In this document: in pieces, positions 21,301 through 35,211 of the stretch | Position numbering within the stretch: position 1 is the first letter of the stretch | Layout of the letters: each line of letters opens with the position of its first letter | Assembly: GCA_030605835.1 (NCBI GenBank) | Contig: JAUWHO010000042.1 | Location: 5,732-69,731, forward strand | DNA from: Candidatus Zixiibacteriota bacterium | GTDB taxonomy: Bacteria > Zixibacteria > MSB-5A5 > DG-27 | Length of the DNA stretch: 64,000 bases | Direction: 5' to 3' | Notes under the pieces: generated by a model | What the model was told of the DNA's origin: nothing | Database searches by the model: none | The model's input: only the letters and a program-made list of their open reading frames with translations | Translations under genes and position numbers: made by a program

Positions 21301-22596
21301 TCACTCGTATCTCAGCGCTTCGATGGGGTCCAATTTGGAGGCTCTCTGGGCCGGATAGAAGCCGAAGATGATCCCCACGGAGGCGGAAACTCCGACTGCC
21401 AGGACTATCGAATACAAGGATATGATGGTTCGCCAATTGGCATAATATGTGATCCCCGTCGCCAGACCCAGGCCAACCACCAATCCCACCAGGCAGCCGA
21501 GAAAGCAGATGAACAGTGCCTCCAGCAGGAATTGATAACGGATGTCTCTCTGTCTCGCACCCACCGCTCGCCTCACCCCAATCTCCCTGGTTCTTTCAAG
21601 AACGGTAGCCAGCATGATGTTCATTATGCCGATTCCCCCCACCAAGAGGGAAATCCCGGCAATTGCACCCATAACGATATTGAAGATGCGCTGGGTCTTC
21701 TGGCTTTGGCGGAGCAACGCCTCCGGAACCACCACCTGATAATCTTCCACCTGGTGGTGTCGCCTCTCTAAGATGCTCTTCAGGGCCGCTTGTGCCTTGT
21801 AAATATCTTTGTGGTCCCCAACTTGAATAGAGACCTCGTCAACCTGGCTGGGAGCTTCGAAGGTGCTTGCGGTCATCATGGTGTAACCACGCCTCCTGAT
21901 CACTCGACCTTTGGCGGCTTTATCCAGCCTCTTCATGGAGGTCTTCAGGGGAAGGTAGATTCCGGAATTGATATCCCTCACCGTGAGCCCTTCGATTTTG
22001 GTTTTGCCCACCGGTTTCTCCCCGAGAAAGCCGACGACGGTGAAATACTGATCGTCCAATTTGATCTGTTGCCCCAGGGGGTCCTCAAAAGGGAAAAGCT
22101 CCCTTTTCACTTTCGCTCCCAAAACGCAGACGCGCCGATATTCCTCTCCATCCTCTTCGGTGAAAAACTTCCCCGATTGTATCTGCAGCTCGAAGAGCTT
22201 CGCGAAATCCGGCTCGGTACCGACTACCTCAGCCTTGGTCTCGACATCTCTGTAAGTGACAATGTCCACGTCCTCCATCCTCTGAGGCACTACCGTTTCG
22301 ACCAGCGGATAGAGATTTCTGAAATTCTCGCAATCCTTCAGAGTTAGACCCTCCGAGAGGCGTCGGAGCTCCTCTGCCTTGGTCCCCTTCTCCAGCGCTT
22401 TAGCCTTTACGATGATGTTTGTCGAACCTAAGAGTCTGATCTGCTCTAAGGCGTCCTGCTTTGCTCCCTCCCCGATGGAGAGCATACCGATGACCGCTGC
22501 CACTCCGAAGATAATCCCCAACATGGTCAGGAAGGTTCGGAGCTTATGGCCCACAAGGGAGCCGATACAGATTTCAAATACCTTGGCGTATTTCAT
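21301..22596 (-). CDS. ABC transporter permease, MacB/LolE-like (FtsX domain)
   Basis: ORF track 21301..22701 trimmed to internal ATG (MKYAKVFEICIGSLVGHKLRTFLTMLGIIFGVAAV; GGAGAGG upstream), which removes the overlap with the adaptor gene; C-terminal FtsX-type 4-TM bundle. No ATPase domain in this ORF. Confidence 0.8.
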   Translation of the reverse strand: MKYAKVFEICIGSLVGHKLRTFLTMLGIIFGVAAVIGMLSIGEGAKQDALEQIRLLGSTNIIVKAKALEKGTKAEELRRLSEGLTLKDCENFRNLYPLVETVVPQRMEDVDIVTYRDVETKAEVVGTEPDFAKLFELQIQSGKFFTEEDGEEYRRVCVLGAKVKRELFPFEDPLGQQIKLDDQYFTVVGFLGEKPVGKTKIEGLTVRDINSGIYLPLKTSMKRLDKAAKGRVIRRRGYTMMTASTFEAPSQVDEVSIQVGDHKDIYKAQAALKSILERRHHQVEDYQVVVPEALLRQSQKTQRIFNIVMGAIAGISLLVGGIGIMNIMLATVLERTREIGVRRAVGARQRDIRYQFLLEALFICFLGCLVGLVVGLGLATGITYYANWRTIISLYSIVLAVGVSASVGIIFGFYPAQRASKLDPIEALRYE

Positions 22597-22615
22597 CGGA
22601 TAGATCCCGCCTCTC

Positions 22616-23899
22616 CTATCCCCCTGAACGGCGAGCTCCCCGGGGCTGTCCCCGACCTCCTTGCGGAGGCTGTTCGAAAGCACCCCTCCCTGTCTCCCCA
22701 ATCCCGGCCTCTTCCTGTTTTCTGGTTGGGTCTGTCAGGCAGATTCTCTCCTCTCCTGAAAGCCCGGAGATGATGGTCACTTCGATATCGTTTCTGGGCC
22801 CGACCTCCACCTCTTGAGGGTGGTAGCTGCCGCCCTCGGCGAGGTAAACGATCCTTCTCCCCCCTTTCTCAAAGACCGATTCGATTGGCACCCAGACTGA
22901 GTTGGGGATGGTGTCTATGATGATTTCAGTCTTGGCGGCCATGCCCGGCTTCAGGCGCTCGTCGTGGCCCTCCACCGTGACCTCGACATCAAACACCCGG
23001 ATTTTGGAATCGTATGATTTGGCCTTGGCCAGGGCTCCGATTTTGGTGACCTCTCCGTGAAAGGTCGGCTCCGGGTAGGCATCCAGCTTTATCTCCACCC
23101 TTTGTCCGGTTTTCAGCTTGCTGACGTCGACCTCGTTCACAGTGGCCTTGACCAGCATGGTGCTCAAATCCGGGAGATCGATGATCGTCTGTCCCGGCCA
23201 GGGTTGATCCCCCTCCTGCATCTTGCCTCTTTGTCCACCCTTCCACACCTCCGGAAAGACCACCAGGCCGGGAATCGGCGCCCTCACCGTCAGATTCTCG
23301 ATATCCTTTCGGGCATCATTGATCCTCTCCTCGGCTCTGTTGACCTCCACCTCCAACTTCTCGATGTCCGCACCCGAGCCCGCCAGCTCTGTGTCCACCC
23401 GCATCCGCATCAGCTCCAGCTCCCTTTCCGCCTCCCGCCTGATTACCGGGGCTTCGAACTCCTTCTCCTTGAAATTTCTCTCCGCCCTCTCCAGATCCAG
23501 TTGTAGTTGGTTTTCCTGAAGCTCTTTGTTTCTTATGGCTTTGTCCAGGTTGGCGTGCGCGATTTTAAGGTTGTCCAGATTGTCCTCCAGGATCTTCTCG
23601 GCCTCCGATTTGTCGAACTCCACCAGGAAATCACCCTTCTGAACGTAGGTCCCCTCCTCGGCCAGCCTGGTTATGGTCAACCTCCCGACGGCCCTAACCT
23701 GAGGGGCGGTAATCGAAACCGACTTCTGCGCCGCCAGCTCCCCGGACTCCACCAAGGAGATTCTGAAGACTCCACTTCTGACTTGTATGGTGGCGACGTT
23801 CAGCTCCTTCTTCGTGATCATCCCTGCAACCCAGACGATCAGAACGATCGCCACAACGACCAGCACATATATTGTCAAGCGTTTTTTCTTCAAGGCCAT
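22616..23899 (-). CDS. Efflux periplasmic adaptor subunit (HlyD/MacA-like membrane fusion protein)
   Basis: ORF track 427 aa; N-terminal TM anchor, long coiled-coil hairpin, beta-barrel region; Gly/Arg-rich tail; immediately upstream of the MacB-like permease. Confidence 0.8.
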   Translation of the reverse strand: MALKKKRLTIYVLVVVAIVLIVWVAGMITKKELNVATIQVRSGVFRISLVESGELAAQKSVSITAPQVRAVGRLTITRLAEEGTYVQKGDFLVEFDKSEAEKILEDNLDNLKIAHANLDKAIRNKELQENQLQLDLERAERNFKEKEFEAPVIRREAERELELMRMRVDTELAGSGADIEKLEVEVNRAEERINDARKDIENLTVRAPIPGLVVFPEVWKGGQRGKMQEGDQPWPGQTIIDLPDLSTMLVKATVNEVDVSKLKTGQRVEIKLDAYPEPTFHGEVTKIGALAKAKSYDSKIRVFDVEVTVEGHDERLKPGMAAKTEIIIDTIPNSVWVPIESVFEKGGRRIVYLAEGGSYHPQEVEVGPRNDIEVTIISGLSGEERICLTDPTRKQEEAGIGETGRGAFEQPPQGGRGQPRGARRSGG

Positions 23900-23903
23900 C
23901 GGA

Positions 23904-25484
23904 CTATCTCTTAATTTTTGCTAGATAAAGGACTCTTCTCAACTCTTCGATTTTCAAAATATGCGAGAAAAAGAGGAAAATCAACAGACCCGAAACCGAT
24001 ACCAGAAGGAATCTGAGCAGGGTGGCGATGAAACTCAGGCCCGGATCAAACAGGTTGACGACTCTCCCCGCGAAGATCAGAAACAGGGACATAAACAAGG
24101 AAGCCAGGAGGATCTTCACAACTGTCGGCACCAGGGAAGACCAATCGATCTTACCGATCTTTCGGTTGAAGAAATAGAGCAGGAGAGAGATATTGACCAG
24201 TGCCGCAACTGCCGTCGCCATCGCCAGCCCCGTGTAACTGAAAAACTGCATCAGGATGAGGCTCAAGATGATGTTGGAAGCGACCGCGATGGCCGCCACC
24301 ACCACCGGGGTTTTGGTGTTCTTGACGGCGTAAAAGACCTGAGAGGTGACTCGAACCGAGGCGTAGGCGAAAAGTCCGGCGCAATAGGGAATCAAAGCCC
24401 TGGTGGTGGCAAGGGTGTCAACTCCGGTGAATTCCCCTCGCTGATAGAGGAGTTTCAAAATCGGGGAGGCGAGGAATATGAGAAAGAGGCTGGAGGGAAT
24501 GGTCAAAAACAGAGCCAACTTCAAGGAATCGTAATAGGTGGAGAGCATCTTATCTCTATCTCCTAAAGCGGCCAACTCCGAAACCCTGGGCAAAGACACC
24601 GTCGCCACCGCCACCCCGAAGACCCCCAGCGGGAAGTGCATCAGACGATAGCTGTAGTTCAGGTAAGAGATACTTCCCTCCGGCAACAGAGAGGCTAAAA
24701 CAGTGTTAACGAAAATGTTGATCTGAGTCACTCCTACTCCGATCGCCGCCGGGGTCATGAGGGCGATGATTCTTCTCACCCCGGGGTCACGGAAATCCAG
24801 AATTGCTCTGTAAACGAAACCAACCCGCCTCAGAAAAGGCAGTTGCAATCCCAGCTGCCCCAGACCTCCGAGAAGCACTCCGATCGCCATCCCCACAATC
24901 GGGGGATCGAAGAAGGGGCAGATCAGAAATCCGGCCGCGATCATCCCCAGGTTGAACATCGTGGGGGCGATCGCTGGAGGACCGAAGCGGCCGAAGCAGT
25001 TCAGCGTTCCCATCACTGCCGCCGCCAACGCCACCAGGATCAGAAAGGGAAACATGATCCGGGCCATAAGAGTCGTCAACTCCGCCTGCCCGGGATGCTC
25101 CCCGAAGCCGGGTGCAATCAGTTTTACGATCAAGGGGGCCAAAACGATCCCTAAAAGGACCACCACACCGGTTGCGACCAGAAGACTGTTTAGCACCAGG
25201 TTGGTCAACCTCAAGGCGGACTCTTTTCCCCGTCTGGTCAGGTGTTCACTGAAGACCGGGACGTATGCTGACGATAAGGCTCCCTCGGCGAACAGATCCC
25301 TTAGGAGGTTGGGTATTCGGAAGGCAGCGAAAAAGGCGTCGGTATAGATTCCGGCGCCGAAAAGATAGGCGAAGACCTGTTCGCGGAGAAGCCCAAATAT
25401 CCTCGAGAGAAGAGTTCCACCGCCGACGGTCCCCACCTGTTTTGCAATGAGGTCCTCCCTGGCTTCCAGTTGATTCAAATCCAT
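23904..25484 (-). CDS. murJ: Lipid II flippase MurJ (MviN family)
   Basis: ORF track 526 aa; LSRIFGLLREQVFAYLFGAGIYTDAFFAAFRIPNLLRDLFAEGALSSAYVPVFS is the conserved MurJ N-terminus; 14-TM topology. Confidence 0.9.
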   Translation of the reverse strand: MDLNQLEAREDLIAKQVGTVGGGTLLSRIFGLLREQVFAYLFGAGIYTDAFFAAFRIPNLLRDLFAEGALSSAYVPVFSEHLTRRGKESALRLTNLVLNSLLVATGVVVLLGIVLAPLIVKLIAPGFGEHPGQAELTTLMARIMFPFLILVALAAAVMGTLNCFGRFGPPAIAPTMFNLGMIAAGFLICPFFDPPIVGMAIGVLLGGLGQLGLQLPFLRRVGFVYRAILDFRDPGVRRIIALMTPAAIGVGVTQINIFVNTVLASLLPEGSISYLNYSYRLMHFPLGVFGVAVATVSLPRVSELAALGDRDKMLSTYYDSLKLALFLTIPSSLFLIFLASPILKLLYQRGEFTGVDTLATTRALIPYCAGLFAYASVRVTSQVFYAVKNTKTPVVVAAIAVASNIILSLILMQFFSYTGLAMATAVAALVNISLLLYFFNRKIGKIDWSSLVPTVVKILLASLFMSLFLIFAGRVVNLFDPGLSFIATLLRFLLVSVSGLLIFLFFSHILKIEELRRVLYLAKIKR

Positions 25485-26006
25485 CCTTTCCCGAAAGGGA
25501 TGCTTGAGGCTAAGCTAATCCTGTCAAAGATTACGATACCCAAAATATAACTCCTCAAACCGATTGACAAGTCAATTTGCTGAGGTGCTTGACGCTGCCT
25601 GCGAGAAACGGTCTGAGTAAAAGCCGCACCTTCACAGTCATCCAAAACGACAGCAGATGTCAAATGACCTTCTACCGTTCCGCCAGGACCGGAGTCCGCC
25701 GAAGGCGGACGTGTCCTGGCGGTCACTGTTCTCGGTCAGACCTACGGCTCCTGTGAGACATGCCATTACTTCGGTCCTGACCGGACCACAGAACTTGCAG
25801 CGGAAACCCTTAGGTTTCCACAAACCAACTGAACCGTAGAGCGGTGAATTTATCACCGCCAACCTCCGGGTCGGTCGCCGCAGGCAATCCGCCTCTGGCG
25901 TGATGAACTCCGACCGCTACAGATTATCCTTTGTCCGGTCAGATCCGCACGGAAAAGAAATGGGAAACAGGATCACCCCCAAAAGGCCACAAAGCTCCCG
26001 AAAATT

Positions 26007-26034
26007 GTTGACAACTTCGAGCTGAAATGTATAT
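26007..26034 (+). promoter_or_regulatory. Sigma-70-like promoter candidate for rpsT
   Basis: TTGACAacttcgagctgaaatgTATATT (-35 TTGACA, 16-nt spacer, -10 TATATT) about 45 nt upstream of the rpsT start; a second TTGACA lies about 35 nt downstream. Confidence 0.5.
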
Positions 26035-26078
26035 TTAGCGGGTTGACAGACGAACTATGATGTGGAATAGGAGGTATT

Positions 26079-26348
26079 TTGCCGACACACAGATCTGCAG
26101 CTAAACGGGTGCGGACATCTCAGATGGCGCGGACCAGGAATAGAGCCTGGAGGTCCCGGGTCAGAGGAGTAATGAAGGACCTCAGCTCCGAGAAGGATAA
26201 ATCCAAGGCTCAGGAAACCCTGAAGGTAGTCTCCTCAGTCCTGGACAAGGCTACCCAGAAGGGGGCGATCCACCACAAAGCCGCCTCCCGAACCAAATCT
26301 CGCCTGGCGAGGCAGGTGAACGATTTGCCGGAGCCAAAAGCCGAATAG
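26079..26348 (+). CDS. rpsT: 30S ribosomal protein S20
   Basis: ORF track 89 aa; TTG start with AGGAGG upstream; MPTHRSAAKRVRTSQMARTRNRAWRSRVRGVMKD matches the bS20 N-terminus. Confidence 0.9.
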   Translation: MPTHRSAAKRVRTSQMARTRNRAWRSRVRGVMKDLSSEKDKSKAQETLKVVSSVLDKATQKGAIHHKAASRTKSRLARQVNDLPEPKAE

Positions 26349-26409
26349 CCCTATCAGTTTTAAGTGATGGAGAATCGATTTCTGAAGGGGGTTTGCTATA
26401 ATCAACGAA

Positions 26410-26787
26410 TCACCACCACAGCCTCTCCCCCACCAAAAGCAGCAGTCTCGGGTTACCCAAAATGATTTGTTTGACAACTTGGAACTTGTCCAATCCCGGG
26501 ACCGCCTTCCCACCAAGCATCCGATCCACCGCTCCGAGGATCTTTTCGAAGTCCTCGTCATCTGATTTTGCGTAAAGGTCTTGACAGAAACCGTATAGCT
26601 TTCTGTCCCTAGCCTTCCACTTCCGCCATCTCTCTGGATACTCGCCGAGATCGGCCCTCCCCTCCAGGAATTCATTTATCACCTCACCGGCGATCCTGCC
26701 GGAGAACAGGGCGTTACCGATTCCGGCATAGGTGAAGGGGTCAGCCAGGCGAATTGCATGACTTTCGAGTTTACTCTCTCGGATCCA
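26410..26787 (-). pseudogene. Truncated remnant of an FAD-dependent oxidoreductase (geranylgeranyl-reductase-like C-terminal fragment)
   Basis: Frame is open from the stop at 26788-26790 (inside the serpin 3' end) to 26410; ...LADPFTYAGIGNALFSGRIAGEVINEFLEG resembles the C-terminal motif of GGR-type flavoproteins, but the N-terminal FAD-binding part is absent. ORF track lists only the GTG-initiated 90 aa. Confidence 0.35.
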
Positions 26788-27973
26788 TTACGCGACCGAG
26801 AAACAGGATGCTGTTCGAACGGAGGTCACGAATCAGAAACAGAAACGGATGATCCGCCCGGAAAACGGGTTGTCGTGGCGGAGCCGCGGTGAGGCCCACC
26901 ACAACACCCGTGGCGGCGGCGGCTTCGGTGCCCTCCTCGTTGACCTCGACAAAGGCTTTGTGCAGGACCGCAGTAATGAAGAGATCCTTCTTGCCGCTCA
27001 TGCCGGAGAAATCGGCCTTGTCCTCATCGAAAGCATCGGTCATCCCCATGGACTTGAGAACCTCGGCCAGGCTGAACTCGGAGGTCATTTTGAATTTCGG
27101 CAGAGCGACGATGACCTCTTGCTTAGTGAGTCCCGTCAGCCACTTCGCCAGATTTTCGCGGTTGAGCAATTTCTCGAAATCTGTTATCGCATCCGTTTCC
27201 TTGGGAAGCAAAACAACCATCGACAAATCATCTCCGAGGTAGGGTATCTCCAGACCCTGTAAATGGTCGGTCTCCGTGTAGTTGAAATCCGCGGTCCGAT
27301 GCATCGTGGGGACCTGGACTTTCTCGCCGCTCACAAGCGTGAAGGCAGCAGGTCGGGTCATCTCCTCTTCAAACTGAGACTCCCAGAAACCCTTAAAGTA
27401 TATGGCGTTGGTCAAGACCAGCCGGGTCAGGCGATCCAGCACTCCCGGCTTGATAAGTTCCTTGATCTTGTCCTCGGTTTCCCTCTCAACCCAGGTGTTG
27501 ATTGTCTGACGAGCAGTTTCAGTCGACCCGATGAAGTCAAGCTCGCTGAGCCCGGCACCGTAATTCTCCTTGGTGAGGTTGAGGAATGTTTCGAGAAACT
27601 CATAACCTCTCTGACCCCACAAGGCATTAGCGACGCTAAGCTGGTAGCCTCGTTCCCCCTCTCCCGTCTCCAGTTGATCGAGCAGTTCCCGAAAGGCCGG
27701 ATGCAGACGTTTCTGCTCTAAGTCGAAATGCAAGACCTCGGCCATCTGTTTCTCGGTGCTGCCTCGAGCCCCGGCATAGGTCATCGCCAGTGCGGTCGAG
27801 ATGCTGTGAGGTGAGAAAAACAGGTTCCCATCTCTGTTCTTCAGCTCGGCGTATAGGTCGAGCGCAAACGCATTATTCCCCTGTACCATCATCTCCCCGT
27901 CGGCGGTCGCAGATCCAGTCGCCATTTGAGTGAGAGCCATGGAAACCAATAGGAACGTTTGAATTATTCCCAT
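26771..27973 (-). CDS. Serpin (serine protease inhibitor), probably secreted
   Basis: ORF track 400 aa; FSPHSISTALAMTYAGARG, NAIYFKGFWESQF, hinge/reactive-centre loop EEGTEAAAATGVV and C-terminal FRADHPFLFLIRD serpin signature; strong AAGGGAGG upstream of ATG. Confidence 0.9.
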   Translation of the reverse strand: MGIIQTFLLVSMALTQMATGSATADGEMMVQGNNAFALDLYAELKNRDGNLFFSPHSISTALAMTYAGARGSTEKQMAEVLHFDLEQKRLHPAFRELLDQLETGEGERGYQLSVANALWGQRGYEFLETFLNLTKENYGAGLSELDFIGSTETARQTINTWVERETEDKIKELIKPGVLDRLTRLVLTNAIYFKGFWESQFEEEMTRPAAFTLVSGEKVQVPTMHRTADFNYTETDHLQGLEIPYLGDDLSMVVLLPKETDAITDFEKLLNRENLAKWLTGLTKQEVIVALPKFKMTSEFSLAEVLKSMGMTDAFDEDKADFSGMSGKKDLFITAVLHKAFVEVNEEGTEAAAATGVVVGLTAAPPRQPVFRADHPFLFLIRDLRSNSILFLGRVMDPRE

Positions 27974-28217
27974 TTCAACCTCCCTTTCCTTAAGACATGT
28001 CTTTAGACAATAGAATTATACGCCCGAGTGGGGCTTTCAATAACGTTGACCCGACGGTCTCAGCTTGTACGGGGTTGACATAAACAGTCGTGAGACACCG
28101 AATCAGGAAGTCCGTTCGGCGGAATTGCGACGAGGCAATTATCACAGCATACAGATTGCTTTCAAAGCCAGCTTGAAGATGATGTTTTCGGGGATGGCTC
28201 CCACTCAACAGGAGGTC

Positions 28218-29345
28218 TCACTCCTCTAACATTTCAACATTCGCTCTGGGGATGATCGCTTTCTCGCCGTTCTCGAACTCCACCTCTAACACCCTGGCAC
28301 GGGATTCCGATTCCAGTTCCTGCAGTGGAGAGGGCAGATCCGAGACCTTCCCTAACCTGCCGAAATAGGGTTGCCGGATCGCCCGCACCGGACTGCCGAC
28401 CGTCAGTCCCGGATTTTCGGCTGCCTCCGCAGCCTCCGATTCAGAGATATCCCCCTTCAGGAGAACGACCACCTCCGGACGGATAACTCCGGCGCGTATT
28501 TGAGTGGCGCCGTTGATGCAGGCCAGTTGTCCCTCCCTGGATTTCAGGAGATTGAAGGTCCTCTCCGCCATCATCATTTCTCCGAAGCCCTCGGTAACCA
28601 CTAAGGTAACACCCAGCTCCTCGGAACCGGTGATGGCCACTCCCAAATCGTGGCCCAAAAAATCGCGCAGATCCTTGTCATCGAAACCACCGACAACCAC
28701 CCCTCTGGCTCCCACCGCTACCGCTTTGTTGATAGCCCCGGCGGTGACCAGGCTGCCTCCTACCACAACCTTCCCCCGGCAGCTCTCGTCAATCTCTTTG
28801 TCGGTGAGGACCGCTTTATTATCGGGGGAGACCATCTTCACCTCCCCGAAAGTCTCTCCACCGATCCCGAAGATCCCTTGGACAAAGGAGCCCCAGGTCT
28901 TGACCTCCACCCCCTCTTCGGGGAAGATCTCCGTCACCTCACCTCTGAGGTAGGCTTTGACCTCCACCGGCACCGGCGCACCCCTCAGAAGCACCTGTCC
29001 GGTGATAGAAGATATGTTCTCGACGCTTCCCGAGATCTTGGCTTTGCAGGTGGAGGTGAAAAGTCCGAAGAAGCTCTTGGTTTTGGCGATAACCTCCCCC
29101 TCTTCCACAGCCTCCCCCCTCTTTTTGGTCATACATTCGGGGACATCTTCTGGGGGAACTCCCAGAATATTGGCGACGTTCACCGGCTCGACATTCCCCG
29201 GGAGATGAGTCCGCGCCACCACCGTATCCGGCTCCACCTTATCGCCGACCTTAACAACCACTTCGCCCTTAAGCGGCAGAATCCTCCTCTTGGTAATCAG
29301 CATCCTATCAGTGACTTTCAGTCCCGGAGTGTATGCATGTGCCAT
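28218..29345 (-). CDS. Hypothetical protein (Gly/Val-rich; function unknown)
   Basis: ORF track 375 aa, ATG start; no family recognised by eye. Confidence 0.4.
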   Translation of the reverse strand: MAHAYTPGLKVTDRMLITKRRILPLKGEVVVKVGDKVEPDTVVARTHLPGNVEPVNVANILGVPPEDVPECMTKKRGEAVEEGEVIAKTKSFFGLFTSTCKAKISGSVENISSITGQVLLRGAPVPVEVKAYLRGEVTEIFPEEGVEVKTWGSFVQGIFGIGGETFGEVKMVSPDNKAVLTDKEIDESCRGKVVVGGSLVTAGAINKAVAVGARGVVVGGFDDKDLRDFLGHDLGVAITGSEELGVTLVVTEGFGEMMMAERTFNLLKSREGQLACINGATQIRAGVIRPEVVVLLKGDISESEAAEAAENPGLTVGSPVRAIRQPYFGRLGKVSDLPSPLQELESESRARVLEVEFENGEKAIIPRANVEMLEE

Positions 29346-29645
29346 AGGTTAACCTCGCCTATTCCAAATGATATCTGTCCTCCGCTTGCCTCTGCCCCTC
29401 GCCCACGTTTCCCCTTTACGATTTCGTCAAGAACTCCACAAGCAATTCGCAATTCATCTTCCTAATATAACGGCGAATCCTTCGCTGTCAACTGAAAGCT
29501 GACTCAGTAACGACAGCGCTTATGTCCTTGACATGAGTTCTGAGGAGCGGGTATATTTGAGATTTGGAGAGTATAGATGACGACCCTCTCGCTCAAGGGG
29601 ACCCGTTTTTGGCGGTGATCATTTGCAGAGGAGTGGAAGCCGAAG

Positions 29646-31328
29646 GTGCAGATTAGATCGGATCTCTTGCTGCCTCTTATCAGGATAGACCAGCATCGAA
29701 GACTGGATTTCCTGGATTTTTCGGGAAAACCGCTGACCTGGTTTGTAATCGGTCTTATCCTACATACCATCGGATTGATATATGTACATTTCTCCCCGGA
29801 TTCGATGCACTTCGTTGACCTCGGGCGGAACTTCGCCCGCGGCCTGGGGCTGGTCACATATAGCCAGAATCTCACTTCAGAATCGATTCCGGACTGGATA
29901 ACGTTCTTCCCACCCCTTTATCCGGTCCTGCTATCAATCGGATTCAAGCTTGGGATGGGAGCCGCCGGGGCGGCCCGCATAGTTTCCCTCACCAGTTTTG
30001 TGATCATTTTCCTATCGGTATATGCATTTGGAAGAAGACTGGTGTCACGAGAGCTTGGGGTGCTCGCCACGGCGTTGTGGGTGATATTGGTGAGCAGGTG
30101 GTCAATCTCCCTGTATGCATGGAGTGATCCACCCTTTGTTGCCTTTTCCCTTCTGTCACTTCTGGTGATGATGAAATCGCTCCAGAAGGAAGAGCATCTC
30201 GTCTATTACTTCGCCCTTGCAGGTCTCCTCAGCGGGCTTGCGGCCTCAACTCGTCTCATCGGCGGGACGTTACTTCCCTGCGGGATTTTGGCTGCCATTC
30301 TCAGTGCCTTTAGGTCTGACAGAGACCGCAAAAGACTATGGTGCGCTGTTAAACTCACCGCGGCGCTCTTGATCGGTTTCATTGTGCCAATGTCGACGTG
30401 GATGATATACAACCGCGTCATGGCCGGATACTTCATGAAAGCACTGAGGATCCCCTCGGAAACAAGTCTGTTCACAAACGTCGCCACCATGACAAAAGGT
30501 ATCTTTTTTGACCTCTGGCCGGTGTTTGCCCTAACGCTCATGACATACCTTTTGGTAGGTGGACTCTCGCTTAAAGGATTTCTAAGTTATTTCCCTGGAA
30601 AAGGCCGGCTGTCCGAAGGGCTCAGGAAGGATATGCTGCTGATAATGTCTTGCTGGATCATCTGTTACTGCGGTCTTCTAATCGTTATAGCCAGCATCGT
30701 GGACATTTATGACATGCGATATCTGAATACAAGACTATTCGTGCCGGTCTACCCATTTCTAATAGTCATCCTGTCGGCAGTGGCTTACCTCACCTACTCA
30801 TCACGATTCAAAGCCTCCCGAATTCCAAGAGTTATCTATACCACTTTTTTTCTGATCGCACTTCTTCTAGCGGGGAAACATCTCTCCTCAGAGATCAAGC
30901 TTTACAGAGAATTGGATTTCGGGAACTGCGAACTCTATGAATGGATAGGTGAGGAGACGAACCCAGACGATCTCTTCATCGGGCGCCGGGTCTGGCACGT
31001 CCGCTTTTACACCGGGCGACCGGTTTTGGGCTCAGGTTATCCGGAGATGCCCCCGTTGATTCCTGAAGCGGTGACGGGATTCTTGAAGAGATTTGAAAAA
31101 AACTACAAGGACGCCTATTTTGTTCTCAGACTGGAGCGGGGCGAGAAGTTCTCACTTGAAGATCTGGAGGCTTACCAGCGAGCGGGATTCGATTTGCACC
31201 GATGTGGGGTTTTCGACTCTTACGAGAAGGAAGTTGAAGTCTATCAAATTGTGAAAATCAGCCACGGGATAACTTCACCAAGCTCGTTGGAATCTCCGCA
31301 AACTCAAGCTGTCTTGAAAGGGAGTTAA
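29646..31328 (+). CDS. Membrane glycosyltransferase, GT39/GT83-like (ArnT/PMT family); start uncertain
   Basis: ORF track 560 aa (first codon GTG); polytopic N-terminal region with FPPLYPVLLSIGF motif and a large C-terminal soluble domain. Confidence 0.55.
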   Translation: MQIRSDLLLPLIRIDQHRRLDFLDFSGKPLTWFVIGLILHTIGLIYVHFSPDSMHFVDLGRNFARGLGLVTYSQNLTSESIPDWITFFPPLYPVLLSIGFKLGMGAAGAARIVSLTSFVIIFLSVYAFGRRLVSRELGVLATALWVILVSRWSISLYAWSDPPFVAFSLLSLLVMMKSLQKEEHLVYYFALAGLLSGLAASTRLIGGTLLPCGILAAILSAFRSDRDRKRLWCAVKLTAALLIGFIVPMSTWMIYNRVMAGYFMKALRIPSETSLFTNVATMTKGIFFDLWPVFALTLMTYLLVGGLSLKGFLSYFPGKGRLSEGLRKDMLLIMSCWIICYCGLLIVIASIVDIYDMRYLNTRLFVPVYPFLIVILSAVAYLTYSSRFKASRIPRVIYTTFFLIALLLAGKHLSSEIKLYRELDFGNCELYEWIGEETNPDDLFIGRRVWHVRFYTGRPVLGSGYPEMPPLIPEAVTGFLKRFEKNYKDAYFVLRLERGEKFSLEDLEAYQRAGFDLHRCGVFDSYEKEVEVYQIVKISHGITSPSSLESPQTQAVLKGS

Positions 31329-31352
31329 CAGATTCATTGATTAAGAGCTCTA

Positions 31353-32558
31353 TTAAACAGCCTTTGGTCTTATCCAAGCATATATCTTAAGCAGAGCCGC
31401 CGCCACCAGCATCATCTCCAGAGGGATAAGAGGCATCCGATAGCGGTATAACCCCAACATTAACACATGCACCACCGAGAAGTATCCACAAATAAGGAGG
31501 AAAATAGGCAGTCTCCGCCAGTAGAAGATAACGCCGAGGAGAAAAAAGAGGAAAATCAGAGTTTCGAAGAAAGCCCAACTCTTGATGAGGAGAGGTTTGG
31601 AGTCCGCAAGCTCCCCGAACTCGGTGGAATTCCACTCCCCCCAGAATTTCCCCATCCAGAAACGCCGGAACTTTTTGGGCCACAAACCCATAATTTGAAG
31701 GGGGTGTTCTTTAATATTTCTTAAAGCATCCTCAATTAGAACCTCATCCACTTCTATCTGGGTCTTTTGATCTTTGACCACCTCCCACATCGGGGGATAA
31801 CGTAAACCTACCCAGTTACCGTCGGCGGAGAGGTCGTTCCCGGGCCAGAGCACAAATCCCAGACCGATGTTGACCGGGATGAACCTGTGAAACTGCAGGT
31901 AATTTCTGAGAGTCCAGGGCGAGACCACCAAATAAGCCACCACAACGTACAGAATTGAAAAAGTGACAGTCTTTTTACTTATCCCCTTTGAAATTAGAAG
32001 ATAAATCCCGTAGAGGGGAGGCAAAAGTAAAAGGACGCTTTTCAACAAGGAGGCGATCCCGGTCACGACTCCGACCAAGACTGCACTAGTAAGCTTCAGA
32101 CTTTTAGCCGATGAAGAAAGCAAATAATAGATGACCACCAGGTAAAGCACGAGCATTATGTCGAGGTAAATAAAATGTTCATATATGGTGAAGGGAAGAT
32201 AAAAAACTATAAGGGCTAAACTTAAAAGAGCGGTTTTCTCATCAAAAATTCTTCTTGCGATTAAAAAAATTATATACCCACTTAAACAGGTCATCAACGA
32301 CTGCAGAATGAAAACTAGAATGTGTGTTTCTCCAAACAGGAGAAAGATCCCCGCCAGAAAGAAGGGATATATGGGCCCTCTGAAGATTGTCGGTTTGCCG
32401 TCGGCATCGATAAAGCCCTCCCCAGAAACCAAAGAGTTGGCTATATGGACGTAACCGACGGCATCGTCCTCGATGACGGTGGGAAAGAAGACGTGGAAGC
32501 CGAGCTTCAGGATAAAGCCCACCAACAATATGATTGCAACTTTGTGGTTAAACTTCAA
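31353..32558 (-). CDS. Membrane glycosyltransferase, GT39/GT83-like (ArnT/PMT family)
   Basis: ORF track 401 aa (TTG start); polytopic; ...ADGKPTIFRGPIYPFFLAGIFLLFG loop motif typical of polyprenyl-phosphate-sugar-dependent transferases. Confidence 0.6.
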   Translation of the reverse strand: MKFNHKVAIILLVGFILKLGFHVFFPTVIEDDAVGYVHIANSLVSGEGFIDADGKPTIFRGPIYPFFLAGIFLLFGETHILVFILQSLMTCLSGYIIFLIARRIFDEKTALLSLALIVFYLPFTIYEHFIYLDIMLVLYLVVIYYLLSSSAKSLKLTSAVLVGVVTGIASLLKSVLLLLPPLYGIYLLISKGISKKTVTFSILYVVVAYLVVSPWTLRNYLQFHRFIPVNIGLGFVLWPGNDLSADGNWVGLRYPPMWEVVKDQKTQIEVDEVLIEDALRNIKEHPLQIMGLWPKKFRRFWMGKFWGEWNSTEFGELADSKPLLIKSWAFFETLIFLFFLLGVIFYWRRLPIFLLICGYFSVVHVLMLGLYRYRMPLIPLEMMLVAAALLKIYAWIRPKAV

Positions 32559-33369: not shown

Positions 33370-35211
33370 TCAGAATTCCTCTAATGCCTCTTTGGGGTAG
33401 ACATCGAGCTCGGTCATCCACTCCTTGAGCTTTCCCACCCGTTCTGAGGCTTCCCTGGGGAGCTTGAAGGGGCGACCGCGCCCGTCTAAGACGATGCCCA
33501 CCACACCCCCGGAAAGCTCCAGTTCCCACTTACTCCCTTTGCCCCTTCCGATGTCGAAGCCCCTTTCGGGATCCAGCATCGCCTTGGCTTTCAAGGGCAG
33601 ATCCTTCTCATCGAACCCCAGGGGGATCAGTTTCATCTCCCCATATGTGAGCTTCCCCTCCGCTATCTGTCCGGTGGGCAACTCGATCCGATAGCCGAGC
33701 ATATCCTTCCCCTCCTTGCCCTCGCCGGCAGGTGCGACGCAGGTTCCCAGATGAATAAGGCAGTCCTTCCTGAAGACCTCCAGAGCCGCCTGAGGGTGGA
33801 CTTCAGAAAGTACTCCCAACTGCGGCATCATGAAGATCGAATCGACCGCCAGACGGGTGACCCCCTCCGGGAGGAAGCCGTCTATGAGCATCATCGCCGC
33901 CTGCTGGCGCCGGGGGGCGTGAGACAACACCCCTCCACTGCCGATCAGCATATCCAAAGACATCATATTCACCAGGGTCTGACCGGAGATTGTTTGCTCG
34001 AAAGCGTCGGCGATGGTTCTCTGTTGCTGCACGCCTTTGAGCATGGTGGCAAAGGATTTATGTTGGATGAAAGCCAACCTCAAAGCCTCCTTGGCAATGG
34101 CCTGTTCGAAGATCAACTCCTCCAACATCTGCGGGATGGTGGTAGGTCGAATCATCTTGTTTTTGATCCGATTTCTCAAATCCCGCTCATCCATGTCGAA
34201 GGGAACCCACCTCATCACGTTGGGAAGACCAGTCTCCGCGAAGACGTTGGAGACCGAGTAGCTCATCCCCAGATTGGCGGAGACGGTGCGATTGAATATA
34301 CCCTGGAAAACCGAGAAAATGTCGGTGGTGGCACCTCCGATATCCACTCCCACCACTTCGATCCCCTCCTCGTCGGCGATACGTTTCATGATCATTCCCA
34401 CCGCCCCCGGGGTGGGCATAATGGGAGCATCAGTCCAGGTCATCAGCTTGCTGTAGCCGGGAGCCTGGGCCATAACATGTTCCATGAAGAGATCGTGGAT
34501 CTTCTCCCTGGCAGGGAGGAGATTCTCTCGCTCCAGCACCGGGCGGATATTCTCGACTATGTCTAAGGAGACTTTTCCATCGAGGGTCTCTTTGATCGCT
34601 TTCCGGGCTTCAATGTTGCCGGCGTATATGACCGGCAGTTGGTATCCGCTTCCCAGGCGGGGTCTGGGATCTGCGGCGGAAACCAACTCCGCCAACTCCA
34701 CCACGTGGGTGGTGGTGCCGCCGTCAATCCCACCGGAGAGGAGAATCATGTCCGGCCTTAAGTGACGGATGCGTTCGATCTGCTGGTGAGGAAGTCTCTT
34801 GTCGTTGGAGGCGATAACGTCCATGACGATGGCGCCGGCACCCAGGGCGGCTCGCTCGGCGCTCTCGGCGGTCATGGAGCGAACCACTCCCGCCACCATC
34901 ATCTGAAGCCCTCCTCCGGCGGAGGAGGTCGAGATGTAGATATCGCTTCCTTCATTGCCATCAGTGGCTTCGAGAATCTTGCCTTTTTCGTCCAGGAGTT
35001 TTCTGCCGGAGAGCTCCTCCACCTCCCCGACGGCATTCAGAACCCCCATGGTGACATCCTCGAAGGGAGCTTCGACCGTTGTCGGAGCCTCCCCCCTGAC
35101 GATAAGACGGTATTCGCCGTCCCGTTTCTCGATCAGAATCGCCTTGGTGGTAGTGGAACCGCAATCGGTTGCCAGGATTACGTTAATATCTTCAGGTCTT
35201 ATCTCTTTCAC
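33370..35211 (-). CDS. ASKHA-superfamily ATPase (GlmL/MutL-like)
   Basis: ORF track 613 aa (GTG start); phosphate-1 motif ILATDCGSTTTKA and phosphate-2 motif GVDIGGATTDIFSV, indicating an actin/Hsp70-like ATPase fold; exact family not certain. Confidence 0.5.
   Translation of the reverse strand: MKEIRPEDINVILATDCGSTTTKAILIEKRDGEYRLIVRGEAPTTVEAPFEDVTMGVLNAVGEVEELSGRKLLDEKGKILEATDGNEGSDIYISTSSAGGGLQMMVAGVVRSMTAESAERAALGAGAIVMDVIASNDKRLPHQQIERIRHLRPDMILLSGGIDGGTTTHVVELAELVSAADPRPRLGSGYQLPVIYAGNIEARKAIKETLDGKVSLDIVENIRPVLERENLLPAREKIHDLFMEHVMAQAPGYSKLMTWTDAPIMPTPGAVGMIMKRIADEEGIEVVGVDIGGATTDIFSVFQGIFNRTVSANLGMSYSVSNVFAETGLPNVMRWVPFDMDERDLRNRIKNKMIRPTTIPQMLEELIFEQAIAKEALRLAFIQHKSFATMLKGVQQQRTIADAFEQTISGQTLVNMMSLDMLIGSGGVLSHAPRRQQAAMMLIDGFLPEGVTRLAVDSIFMMPQLGVLSEVHPQAALEVFRKDCLIHLGTCVAPAGEGKEGKDMLGYRIELPTGQIAEGKLTYGEMKLIPLGFDEKDLPLKAKAMLDPERGFDIGRGKGSKWELELSGGVVGIVLDGRGRPFKLPREASERVGKLKEWMTELDVYPKEALEEF

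Follow-up and report, generated by a model that had tools for sequence, protein, structure and literature searches.

The window analysed here, 64,000 nucleotides of a Zixibacteria chromosome (contig JAUWHO010000042.1) whose close matches all come from metagenome-assembled Zixibacteria, contains a serpin gene followed immediately by a short open reading frame. We consider it very probable that this frame is the stub of a geranylgeranyl reductase (GGR) gene made by a deletion, and that it stands beside an intact, most likely inhibitory serpin. In the clade to which the window belongs, the ancestral gene order would have been p375, a probably secreted serpin, a 393-aa GGR flavoprotein, rpsT on the opposite strand, and murJ. 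A single deletion of ~0.97 kb at a short microhomology would then have removed most of the serpin-GGR spacer together with GGR codons 1-280 in the sub-lineage of the window, taking with it the GxGxxG motif that binds flavin adenine dinucleotide (FAD), the catalytic domain and the GDAA motif. Directly behind the serpin stop, the final 113 GGR codons would have been left as a dead stub, devoid of a start codon or ribosome-binding site of its own and drifting about as fast as the spacers around it. The serpin would have come through intact, keeping a Shine-Dalgarno sequence and promoter-like elements of its own, an N-terminus that resembles an export signal, and the canonical hinge of inhibitory serpins. 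The locus is a case of ordinary genome decay, in which a deletion pseudogene lies beside a typical environmental bacterial serpin. The features on which this account draws are, in the order of the minus strand:

28218-29345, minus strand: p375, a conserved 375-aa protein, upstream neighbour of the serpin and last gene of a separate conserved block
26771-27973, minus strand: full-length serpin coding sequence of 400 aa (open reading frame; stop TAA at 26771-26773)
26752-26770, minus strand: 19 nt of the original spacer, retained downstream of the serpin (alignment to the L106 and DG_27 spacers)
26745-26751, minus strand: deletion junction with the putative microhomology CGCCTGG (three-way alignment)
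26410-26751, minus strand: GGR pseudogene fragment, codons 281-393 of the ancestral 393-aa flavoprotein plus the original stop
26079-26348, plus strand: rpsT, ribosomal protein S20 (Pfam PF01649, E=1.5e-21), convergent with the GGR remnant and anchoring the ancestral GGR-rpsT-MurJ block
23904-25484, minus strand: murJ, lipid II flippase (Pfam PF03023, E=5.9e-122), the second anchor of the ancestral block by synteny

The GGR remnant and the deletion junction

The frame behind the serpin is open for 125 codons on the minus strand (26413-26787) and ends at a TGA at 26410-26412. Upstream it is closed by a TAA at 26788-26790 which, as a preliminary description of this DNA had stated, lies inside the serpin 3' end; it precedes the serpin stop by 15 nt, and the serpin and remnant frames overlap by 17 nt. 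That description had also taken the whole frame to be the C-terminal ~125 aa of a GGR-type FAD oxidoreductase. Its assignment to a truncated GGR was borne out, but only 113 of the 125 codons (26413-26751) are GGR-derived, the first 12 being made up of the serpin 3' end and the spacer.

Direct family scans of the 125-aa frame gave weak results, with no Pfam match and marginal scores to NCBIfam TIGR02023 (E=0.004) and PDB 3oz2 (E=0.0065). A profile search of 1.8 billion representative proteins returned proteins of 390-400 aa that match through their last ~100 residues, and these full-length relatives carry the GGR_cat domain PF22578 (residues ~174-257) together with FAD-binding domains. By blastp, the frame matches residues 272-393 of 393-aa Zixibacteria GGRs at 36-43% identity (~E=1e-25). 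The match to the intact GGR of the related locus L106 spans residues 275-393 of that protein at 74% identity (E=1e-64), is gapless and ends in the same C-terminal LWW-stop. A profile of full-length GGRs in turn matches the window at its positions 277-388 of 394 only (E=1.7e-31), and neither tblastn nor hmmsearch found a displaced GGR N-terminal fragment or a paralogue in the six frames of the window.

The stub is thus homologous to the C-terminal 113 residues of the GGR / digeranylgeranylglycerophospholipid reductase family (PF22578 plus FAD_binding_3; PDB 3OZ2), and it sits where an intact member of that family sits in other Zixibacteria. Unlike those members, it lacks ~72% of the protein. 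The GxGxxG motif, which reads VVVGAGPAGS in the L106 counterpart, is missing, as is the catalytic domain PF22578, which falls inside the deleted part. The GDAA motif is missing as well, the GDAARLVDP of L106 corresponding to SHAIRLADP in the window, where SHAI is spacer sequence from the left of the junction. What is left begins within the last FAD-binding element and includes the C-terminal helical domain of the family. Judged by these missing parts, the product would be unable to bind FAD or to catalyse a reaction, and we take the stub to be a pseudogene fragment and no functional family member.

The truncated arrangement is shared. Eleven contigs from nine other samples or assemblies (L001-L006 and L091-L095), drawn from NCBI, JGI, ENA and Logan sources, have the same order of serpin, short frame and, on the other strand, rpsT; DNA identity around the junction is 87-94%, and none of them differs in the junction sequence. 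This bears on the possibility that misassembly produced a chimeric contig, with a serpin contig fused to the interior of a GGR gene. Both the window and all of its relatives are metagenome-assembled, and L094 diverges abruptly near its contig end. However, an identical junction in eleven contigs that differ by 6-13% around it rules out such an artefact, to which we assign a next to negligible probability.

The untruncated arrangement was also found, as the preliminary description had proposed to check by looking for an intact oxidoreductase at this place in relatives. In four more distant Zixibacteria (L096, L097, L098 and L100), the order at this place is a full GGR of 390-393 aa, rpsT on the opposite strand, and MurJ. 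The closer relative L106 carries p375, a serpin 81% identical to that of the window, an intact GGR of 393 aa, rpsT and MurJ. At L103, a GGR N-terminus (211 aa, to the contig end) begins 21 nt after the serpin, and in the Zixibacteria genome DG_27 (L101) and at L105 two tandem serpins are followed by a GGR N-terminus; the DG_27 and L103 contigs end within GGR. The loci of L106, L103, DG_27 and L105 indicate that the serpin stood directly upstream of a still intact GGR when the truncation took place. It counts against this reconstruction that L106 is the only close relative seen with a complete GGR.

These loci also decide between a deletion and an insertion. The preliminary description had suggested that a horizontally acquired serpin was inserted into the GGR gene or replaced its 5' part, and had itself named a serpin locus syntenic in relatives as an observation that would speak against this; such synteny is what we found. 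In favour of an insertion, the serpin adjoins the truncation point, with overlapping frames. Moreover, in 80 genomes that have p375 at 59-76% identity, serpin, GGR, rpsT and MurJ are all absent within 10 kb, from which it follows that the ancestry of the clade included a gain or a relocation of the serpin. Against it, the same serpin adjoins an intact GGR in L106 and a GGR N-terminus in L103, DG_27 and L105, ~19 nt of the original spacer still lie downstream of the window serpin, and there is no 5' GGR fragment upstream of it. Nor does its composition, which is typical of the window, give any sign of recent transfer (GC 0.545; GC at third codon positions, GC3, 0.671; codon-usage distance at the 49th percentile of window genes), and the suggestion of a recent horizontal acquisition is left without compositional support. 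We therefore regard insertion or replacement by an acquired serpin as very improbable, and a ~0.97-kb deletion as the event that truncated the gene.

The boundaries of this deletion can be read from a blastn comparison of the window with L106, in which window 29249-26763 corresponds to L106 1-2468 and window 26751-26007 to L106 3446-4191. The start of the right block, window 26751 or L106 3446, is GGR codon 281 (R281). From the two blocks, the window is without ~0.97 kb, consisting of most of a 145-nt spacer and GGR codons 1-280. The 19 nt between the serpin stop and the junction (26752-26770) align with the spacer that follows the serpin stop in L106 and with that which follows the second serpin, serpin B, in DG_27. 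We then aligned the window, the L106 spacer and L106 GGR codons 266-299 three ways. At the junction, the spacer reads ...CGACGCGG / CGGCGTGG and GGR reads ...GCCCGCCTGG; the CGCCTGG found there resembles both parental sequences, which suggests a microhomology junction. With the intact and truncated states both sampled and the junction placed to within a few bases, the deletion is cleanly resolved at this locus.

The loss of this GGR copy in the sub-lineage could bear on isoprenoid or lipid saturation, though only if the genome is without a paralogue. A separate observation concerns the intact gene. In two of the distant Zixibacteria, L097 (1787-1963) and L100 (5784-6008), a small 4Fe-4S ferredoxin gene encoding 58-74 aa overlaps the GGR start. 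It is absent in L106 and L096, and its product could be an electron donor for GGR.

Pseudogene or small gene

The stub might be thought to be a real gene in which the C-terminal helical domain of GGR has been kept as a protein of ~90-110 aa, translated through coupling to the serpin or from a start codon, either the GTG at 26682 or the TTG that serves in relatives. Several NCBI and JGI assemblies annotate a coding sequence at this site, as a 'hypothetical protein' or 'flavin-dependent dehydrogenase' of 90-108 aa, and a first word-indexed search returned only short homologues of the stub (80-111 aa). The preliminary description had held that full-length small-protein homologues would mark the frame as a real short gene. 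The 80-111 aa matches do exist, but at the DNA level all share the same upstream stop and junction and are orthologous copies of the same truncated frame; a real small-protein family was rejected on this ground, and the annotated proteins correspond to a pseudogene stub.

We compared the pattern of substitutions in the stub with a neutral expectation using a permutation test, in which each observed substitution type is placed at random sites with the same base and which thereby controls for base composition and mutation spectrum. The stub has 31 synonymous events where 26.6 are expected under neutrality (standard deviation 4.0), an excess that is not significant (P=0.16). Pieces of rpsT, the serpin and murJ of the same length all gave P<=0.0007 in the same test, which shows that the test has power. 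Divergence per site in the stub is 0.07-0.12, similar to that of the flanking spacers and 0.5-1x that of the fourfold-degenerate sites of p375 and MurJ.

Sister lineages have moreover acquired lesions. Premature in-frame stops have arisen independently in L006 (TGG to TGA) and in L092/L093 (GGA to TGA), and 1-nt insertions or deletions shift the frame near the 3' end of the stub in four lineages (L006, L092, L004/L005 and L091). There is no start codon common to the window and its relatives: the TTG called as a start in relatives corresponds to Leu286 of the intact GGR and is TTC in the window, and the GTG at 26682, the start in the annotation of the window, is GTC in all relatives. No sequence resembling a Shine-Dalgarno element was found at a usable distance from these starts. 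A protein made from the frame would, in addition, begin inside the last FAD-binding element of the enzyme.

Several observations nonetheless speak for the small gene and against a dead stub. Pairwise Nei-Gojobori (NG86) ratios of nonsynonymous to synonymous divergence (dN/dS) are 0.26-0.50 for the stub, and not 1; changes at the three codon positions number 22/25/40, which somewhat favours the third; and the spacer of 61 nt on the downstream side varies more than the stub itself in most comparisons, those with L003 and L095 being exceptions. All 113 GGR codons also stay open in the window, as they do in most relatives. A residue of weak constraint may lie behind these points, or the deletion may have happened only a short while ago. 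The dN/dS values were set aside as a sign of constraint after the controlled permutation test and the comparison of per-site divergence with the spacers. We judged the evidence against constraint to be stronger than the evidence for it and conclude that the stub is a pseudogene, a retained small gene being improbable.

In these respects the stub resembles the bacterial deletion pseudogenes that illegitimate recombination leaves behind at microhomologies. It occupies the ancestral locus in truncated form, has no start signal, shows near-neutral substitutions, and has scattered stops and frameshifts in sister lineages. The only unusual point by comparison is that it is present at full length in every lineage sampled. 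A programmed frameshift that would fuse the serpin to the stub was also considered and rejected, the serpin ending at the normal C-terminus of its family and the stub decaying.

The serpin and its alleles

The serpin upstream of the stub is full-length with an intact reactive-centre loop (RCL), in agreement with the preliminary description. It matches profile positions 2-370 of 370 in Pfam PF00079 (E=6.9e-130), the profile of the serpin superfamily, MEROPS I4, which corresponds to a full-length fold at the sequence level, and 210 serpin chains in the PDB match it at E<=1e-3. Its further elements, all on the minus strand, are:

28138-28165, minus strand: second sigma-70-like site (scan match TTGAAA-16-GATAAT; consensus match only)
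28015-28020, minus strand: TATAAT box, candidate -10 element, in the p375-serpin spacer (consensus match)
27979-27984, minus strand: Shine-Dalgarno sequence GGGAGG of the serpin (read from the sequence)
27902-27973, minus strand: signal-peptide-like N-terminus, serpin residues 1-24 (read from the sequence)
26870-26938, minus strand: RCL, E346-Q368, with the predicted P1 codon at 26888-26890

The best match among solved structures is chloropin from Chlorobium limicola (PDB 8GXV, chain 8gxv_A; PMC10090351), with E=1.5e-100 over serpin residues 34-398. Chloropin is a secreted inhibitory serpin with a signal peptide, has Arg-Ser at P1-P1', and inhibits thrombin and KLK7 (PMC10090351). The two proteins belong to the same FCB superphylum and share the ExGTEAAAA hinge, a mark of inhibitory serpins that permits loop insertion (PMC8233489, PMC10090351). 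In the window serpin this hinge is EEGTEAAAA (P17-P9, residues 346-354), and it is invariant in 12/12 orthologues and paralogues. The RCL is one residue shorter than that of chloropin. Counting from the hinge and alignment to the Arg-Ser of chloropin both place the predicted P1-P1' at T362-A363, T362 being aligned with the experimentally determined P1 Arg. The window allele accordingly differs from chloropin in having Thr-Ala at the aligned positions, where sister alleles have Lys-Ser. The protein is most likely a suicide-substrate inhibitor, with extracytoplasmic serine proteases as its predicted targets.

Features of the N-terminus (MGIIQTFLLVSMALTQMATGSATA) suggest that the serpin is probably secreted. 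The preliminary description had called it signal-peptide-like, and this holds insofar as there is a hydrophobic core of 12 residues and a small-residue A-T-A motif in a region conserved among orthologues. The n-region has no basic residue in the window allele; that of paralogue B in DG_27 is basic (MNRIQWFLVVSLVLAQVATA). The alignment to the crystallised chloropin chain begins only at serpin residue 34 (8gxv_A residue 8).

Candidate signals for expression lie upstream of the gene. A GGGAGG Shine-Dalgarno sequence stands 5 nt upstream of the serpin ATG and is kept in all orthologous loci aligned. The TATAAT box further upstream is a candidate for the -10 element of the serpin's own promoter; its TATAA is invariant in loci whose identity goes down to 81%, and 9/10 of these loci have T as the sixth base (C in L103). 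No terminator-like site was found between the serpin stop and the stub, and the stub is therefore probably co-transcribed as part of the 3' region of the serpin mRNA.

The serpin is under purifying selection. Its NG86 dN/dS is 0.18-0.34 across all pairs, typically ~0.2, and in the permutation test synonymous changes are in strong excess. At E<=1e-30 it has more than 8000 matches among database proteins, with identity falling gradually from 98% to ~57%; among these are a DG_27 protein (68%) and proteins of Planctomycetota and WOR-3 (57-64%). It resembles the prokaryotic 'hub-like' serpins of Spence et al. 2021 (PMC8233489) in coming from an environmental uncultured lineage, in its inhibitory hinge and putative N-terminal transport peptide, and in the absence of a GC anomaly. 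It differs from them in that the gene is single or tandemly paired in the Zixibacteria clade and has recombinant alleles. No Zixibacteria serpin was reported in the literature that we searched, and the present one adds Zixibacteria to the environmental bacterial phyla with hinge-competent serpins that are predicted to be secreted.

The serpin gene is far more diverged than its flanks. Between the window and L001, synonymous divergence (dS) is 0.82 for the serpin versus 0.15-0.32 for the stub, rpsT and murJ. The L001 serpin is a mosaic which is of the DG_27 serpin-B type from nt 241 to 1020 and of A type at its ends. The loop varies too, P3-P1' being GLTA in the window and L004/L005, GLTS in DG_27 serpin A and L103, and ALKS in L091, L092, L001 and L106. 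The serpin alleles are thus recombination mosaics with Thr or Lys at P1, and both the mosaicism and the P1 variation are open to biochemical tests.

Three further observations concern recombination among these alleles. With its 95-99% identity to type B, the body of the L001 serpin suggests that lineages have recombined recently. Two tandem serpins, A and B, occur in Zixibacteria of the DG_27 type (L101, 6739-9197; L104; L105; L102); their DNA identity is 71%, and their RCLs, GLTSAPPSQ for A versus MEKGAVGQRPP for B, differ strongly. Finally, L004 and L005, both from metagenome Ga0209979, are identical through the stub, rpsT and murJ and differ in the serpin (dS 0.25) and p375 (dS 0.17), a pattern that indicates recombination among co-existing strains with a breakpoint at, or close to, the 3' end of the serpin. 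Derivation of the single window serpin by collapse of a tandem A/B pair was dropped as unnecessary; the change may have gone in either direction, each of the outgroups L103 and L106 having a single serpin whose 3' end is B-like as well.

A bolder reading would make the serpin locus a recombination hot spot under diversifying selection, at which swaps of A and B gene bodies and the change between Thr and Lys at P1 retarget the inhibitor to proteases of competitors or predators, and at which the GGR stub is kept as a 3' untranslated region, a homology arm or a small protein. A conserved role of this kind would fit with the fact that no sampled lineage has deleted the stub. We think this reading unlikely. 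No protease gene was found among the ~20 neighbouring genes scanned (~14.8-35.2 kb), which belong to envelope, efflux and housekeeping functions.

Neighbouring genes and spacers

As for possible marks of an integration site, the whole window contains no tRNA, and positions 22000-32000 contain no Rfam family. Upstream of the serpin, p375 has no above-threshold Pfam match. Its loci in the 80 genomes that lack the serpin block show that the joining of p375 to serpin-GGR-rpsT-MurJ is specific to the clade of the window, DG_27, L103 and L106; this joining predates the deletion. As a synteny anchor, p375 was abandoned, the 80 genomes showing only that it ends a different block, conserved in Zixibacteria and in neighbouring phyla, and it was the look-up of GGR and serpin homologues that gave informative loci.

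Besides Zixibacteria, homologues of p375 with 59-76% identity occur in genomes with labels such as Calditrichaeota, Planctomycetota, Eisenbacteria and Edwardsbacteria. A homologue of the PF13941 'MutL protein', which is associated with glutamate mutase, precedes p375 on the same strand in 68 of the 80 loci; its window copy lies at 33370-35211. The two look like a conserved two-gene module with no assigned function. At L091 (576-1680), p375 is called as two genes of 100 and 251 aa, with a break in the tblastn alignment between residues 63 and 70, which is either a frameshift or a sequencing error.

Between a GT2 gene and p375, the window carries two PMT_2-family glycosyltransferase genes (29646-32558), one at 29646-31328 on the plus strand with a GC of 0.499 and the other at 31353-32558 on the minus strand with a GC of 0.455. 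In L092 and DG_27 (L101), both close relatives, this site is taken up by a gene for a short-chain dehydrogenase instead. The low GC and the difference in presence suggest that the PMT_2 pair is a recent replacement or insertion.

On the far side of the stub, the spacer between the divergent genes murJ and rpsT (25485-26078) measures 594 bp in the window, ~730 bp in L106 and 58-262 bp in L096, L098 and L100. It contains no Rfam match and no tRNA. At 0.05-0.08 differences per site, it is more conserved than the fourfold-degenerate sites of the flanking genes in most comparisons, the exceptions being L092 and L095 (~0.19), and it may hold an undescribed RNA or small gene.

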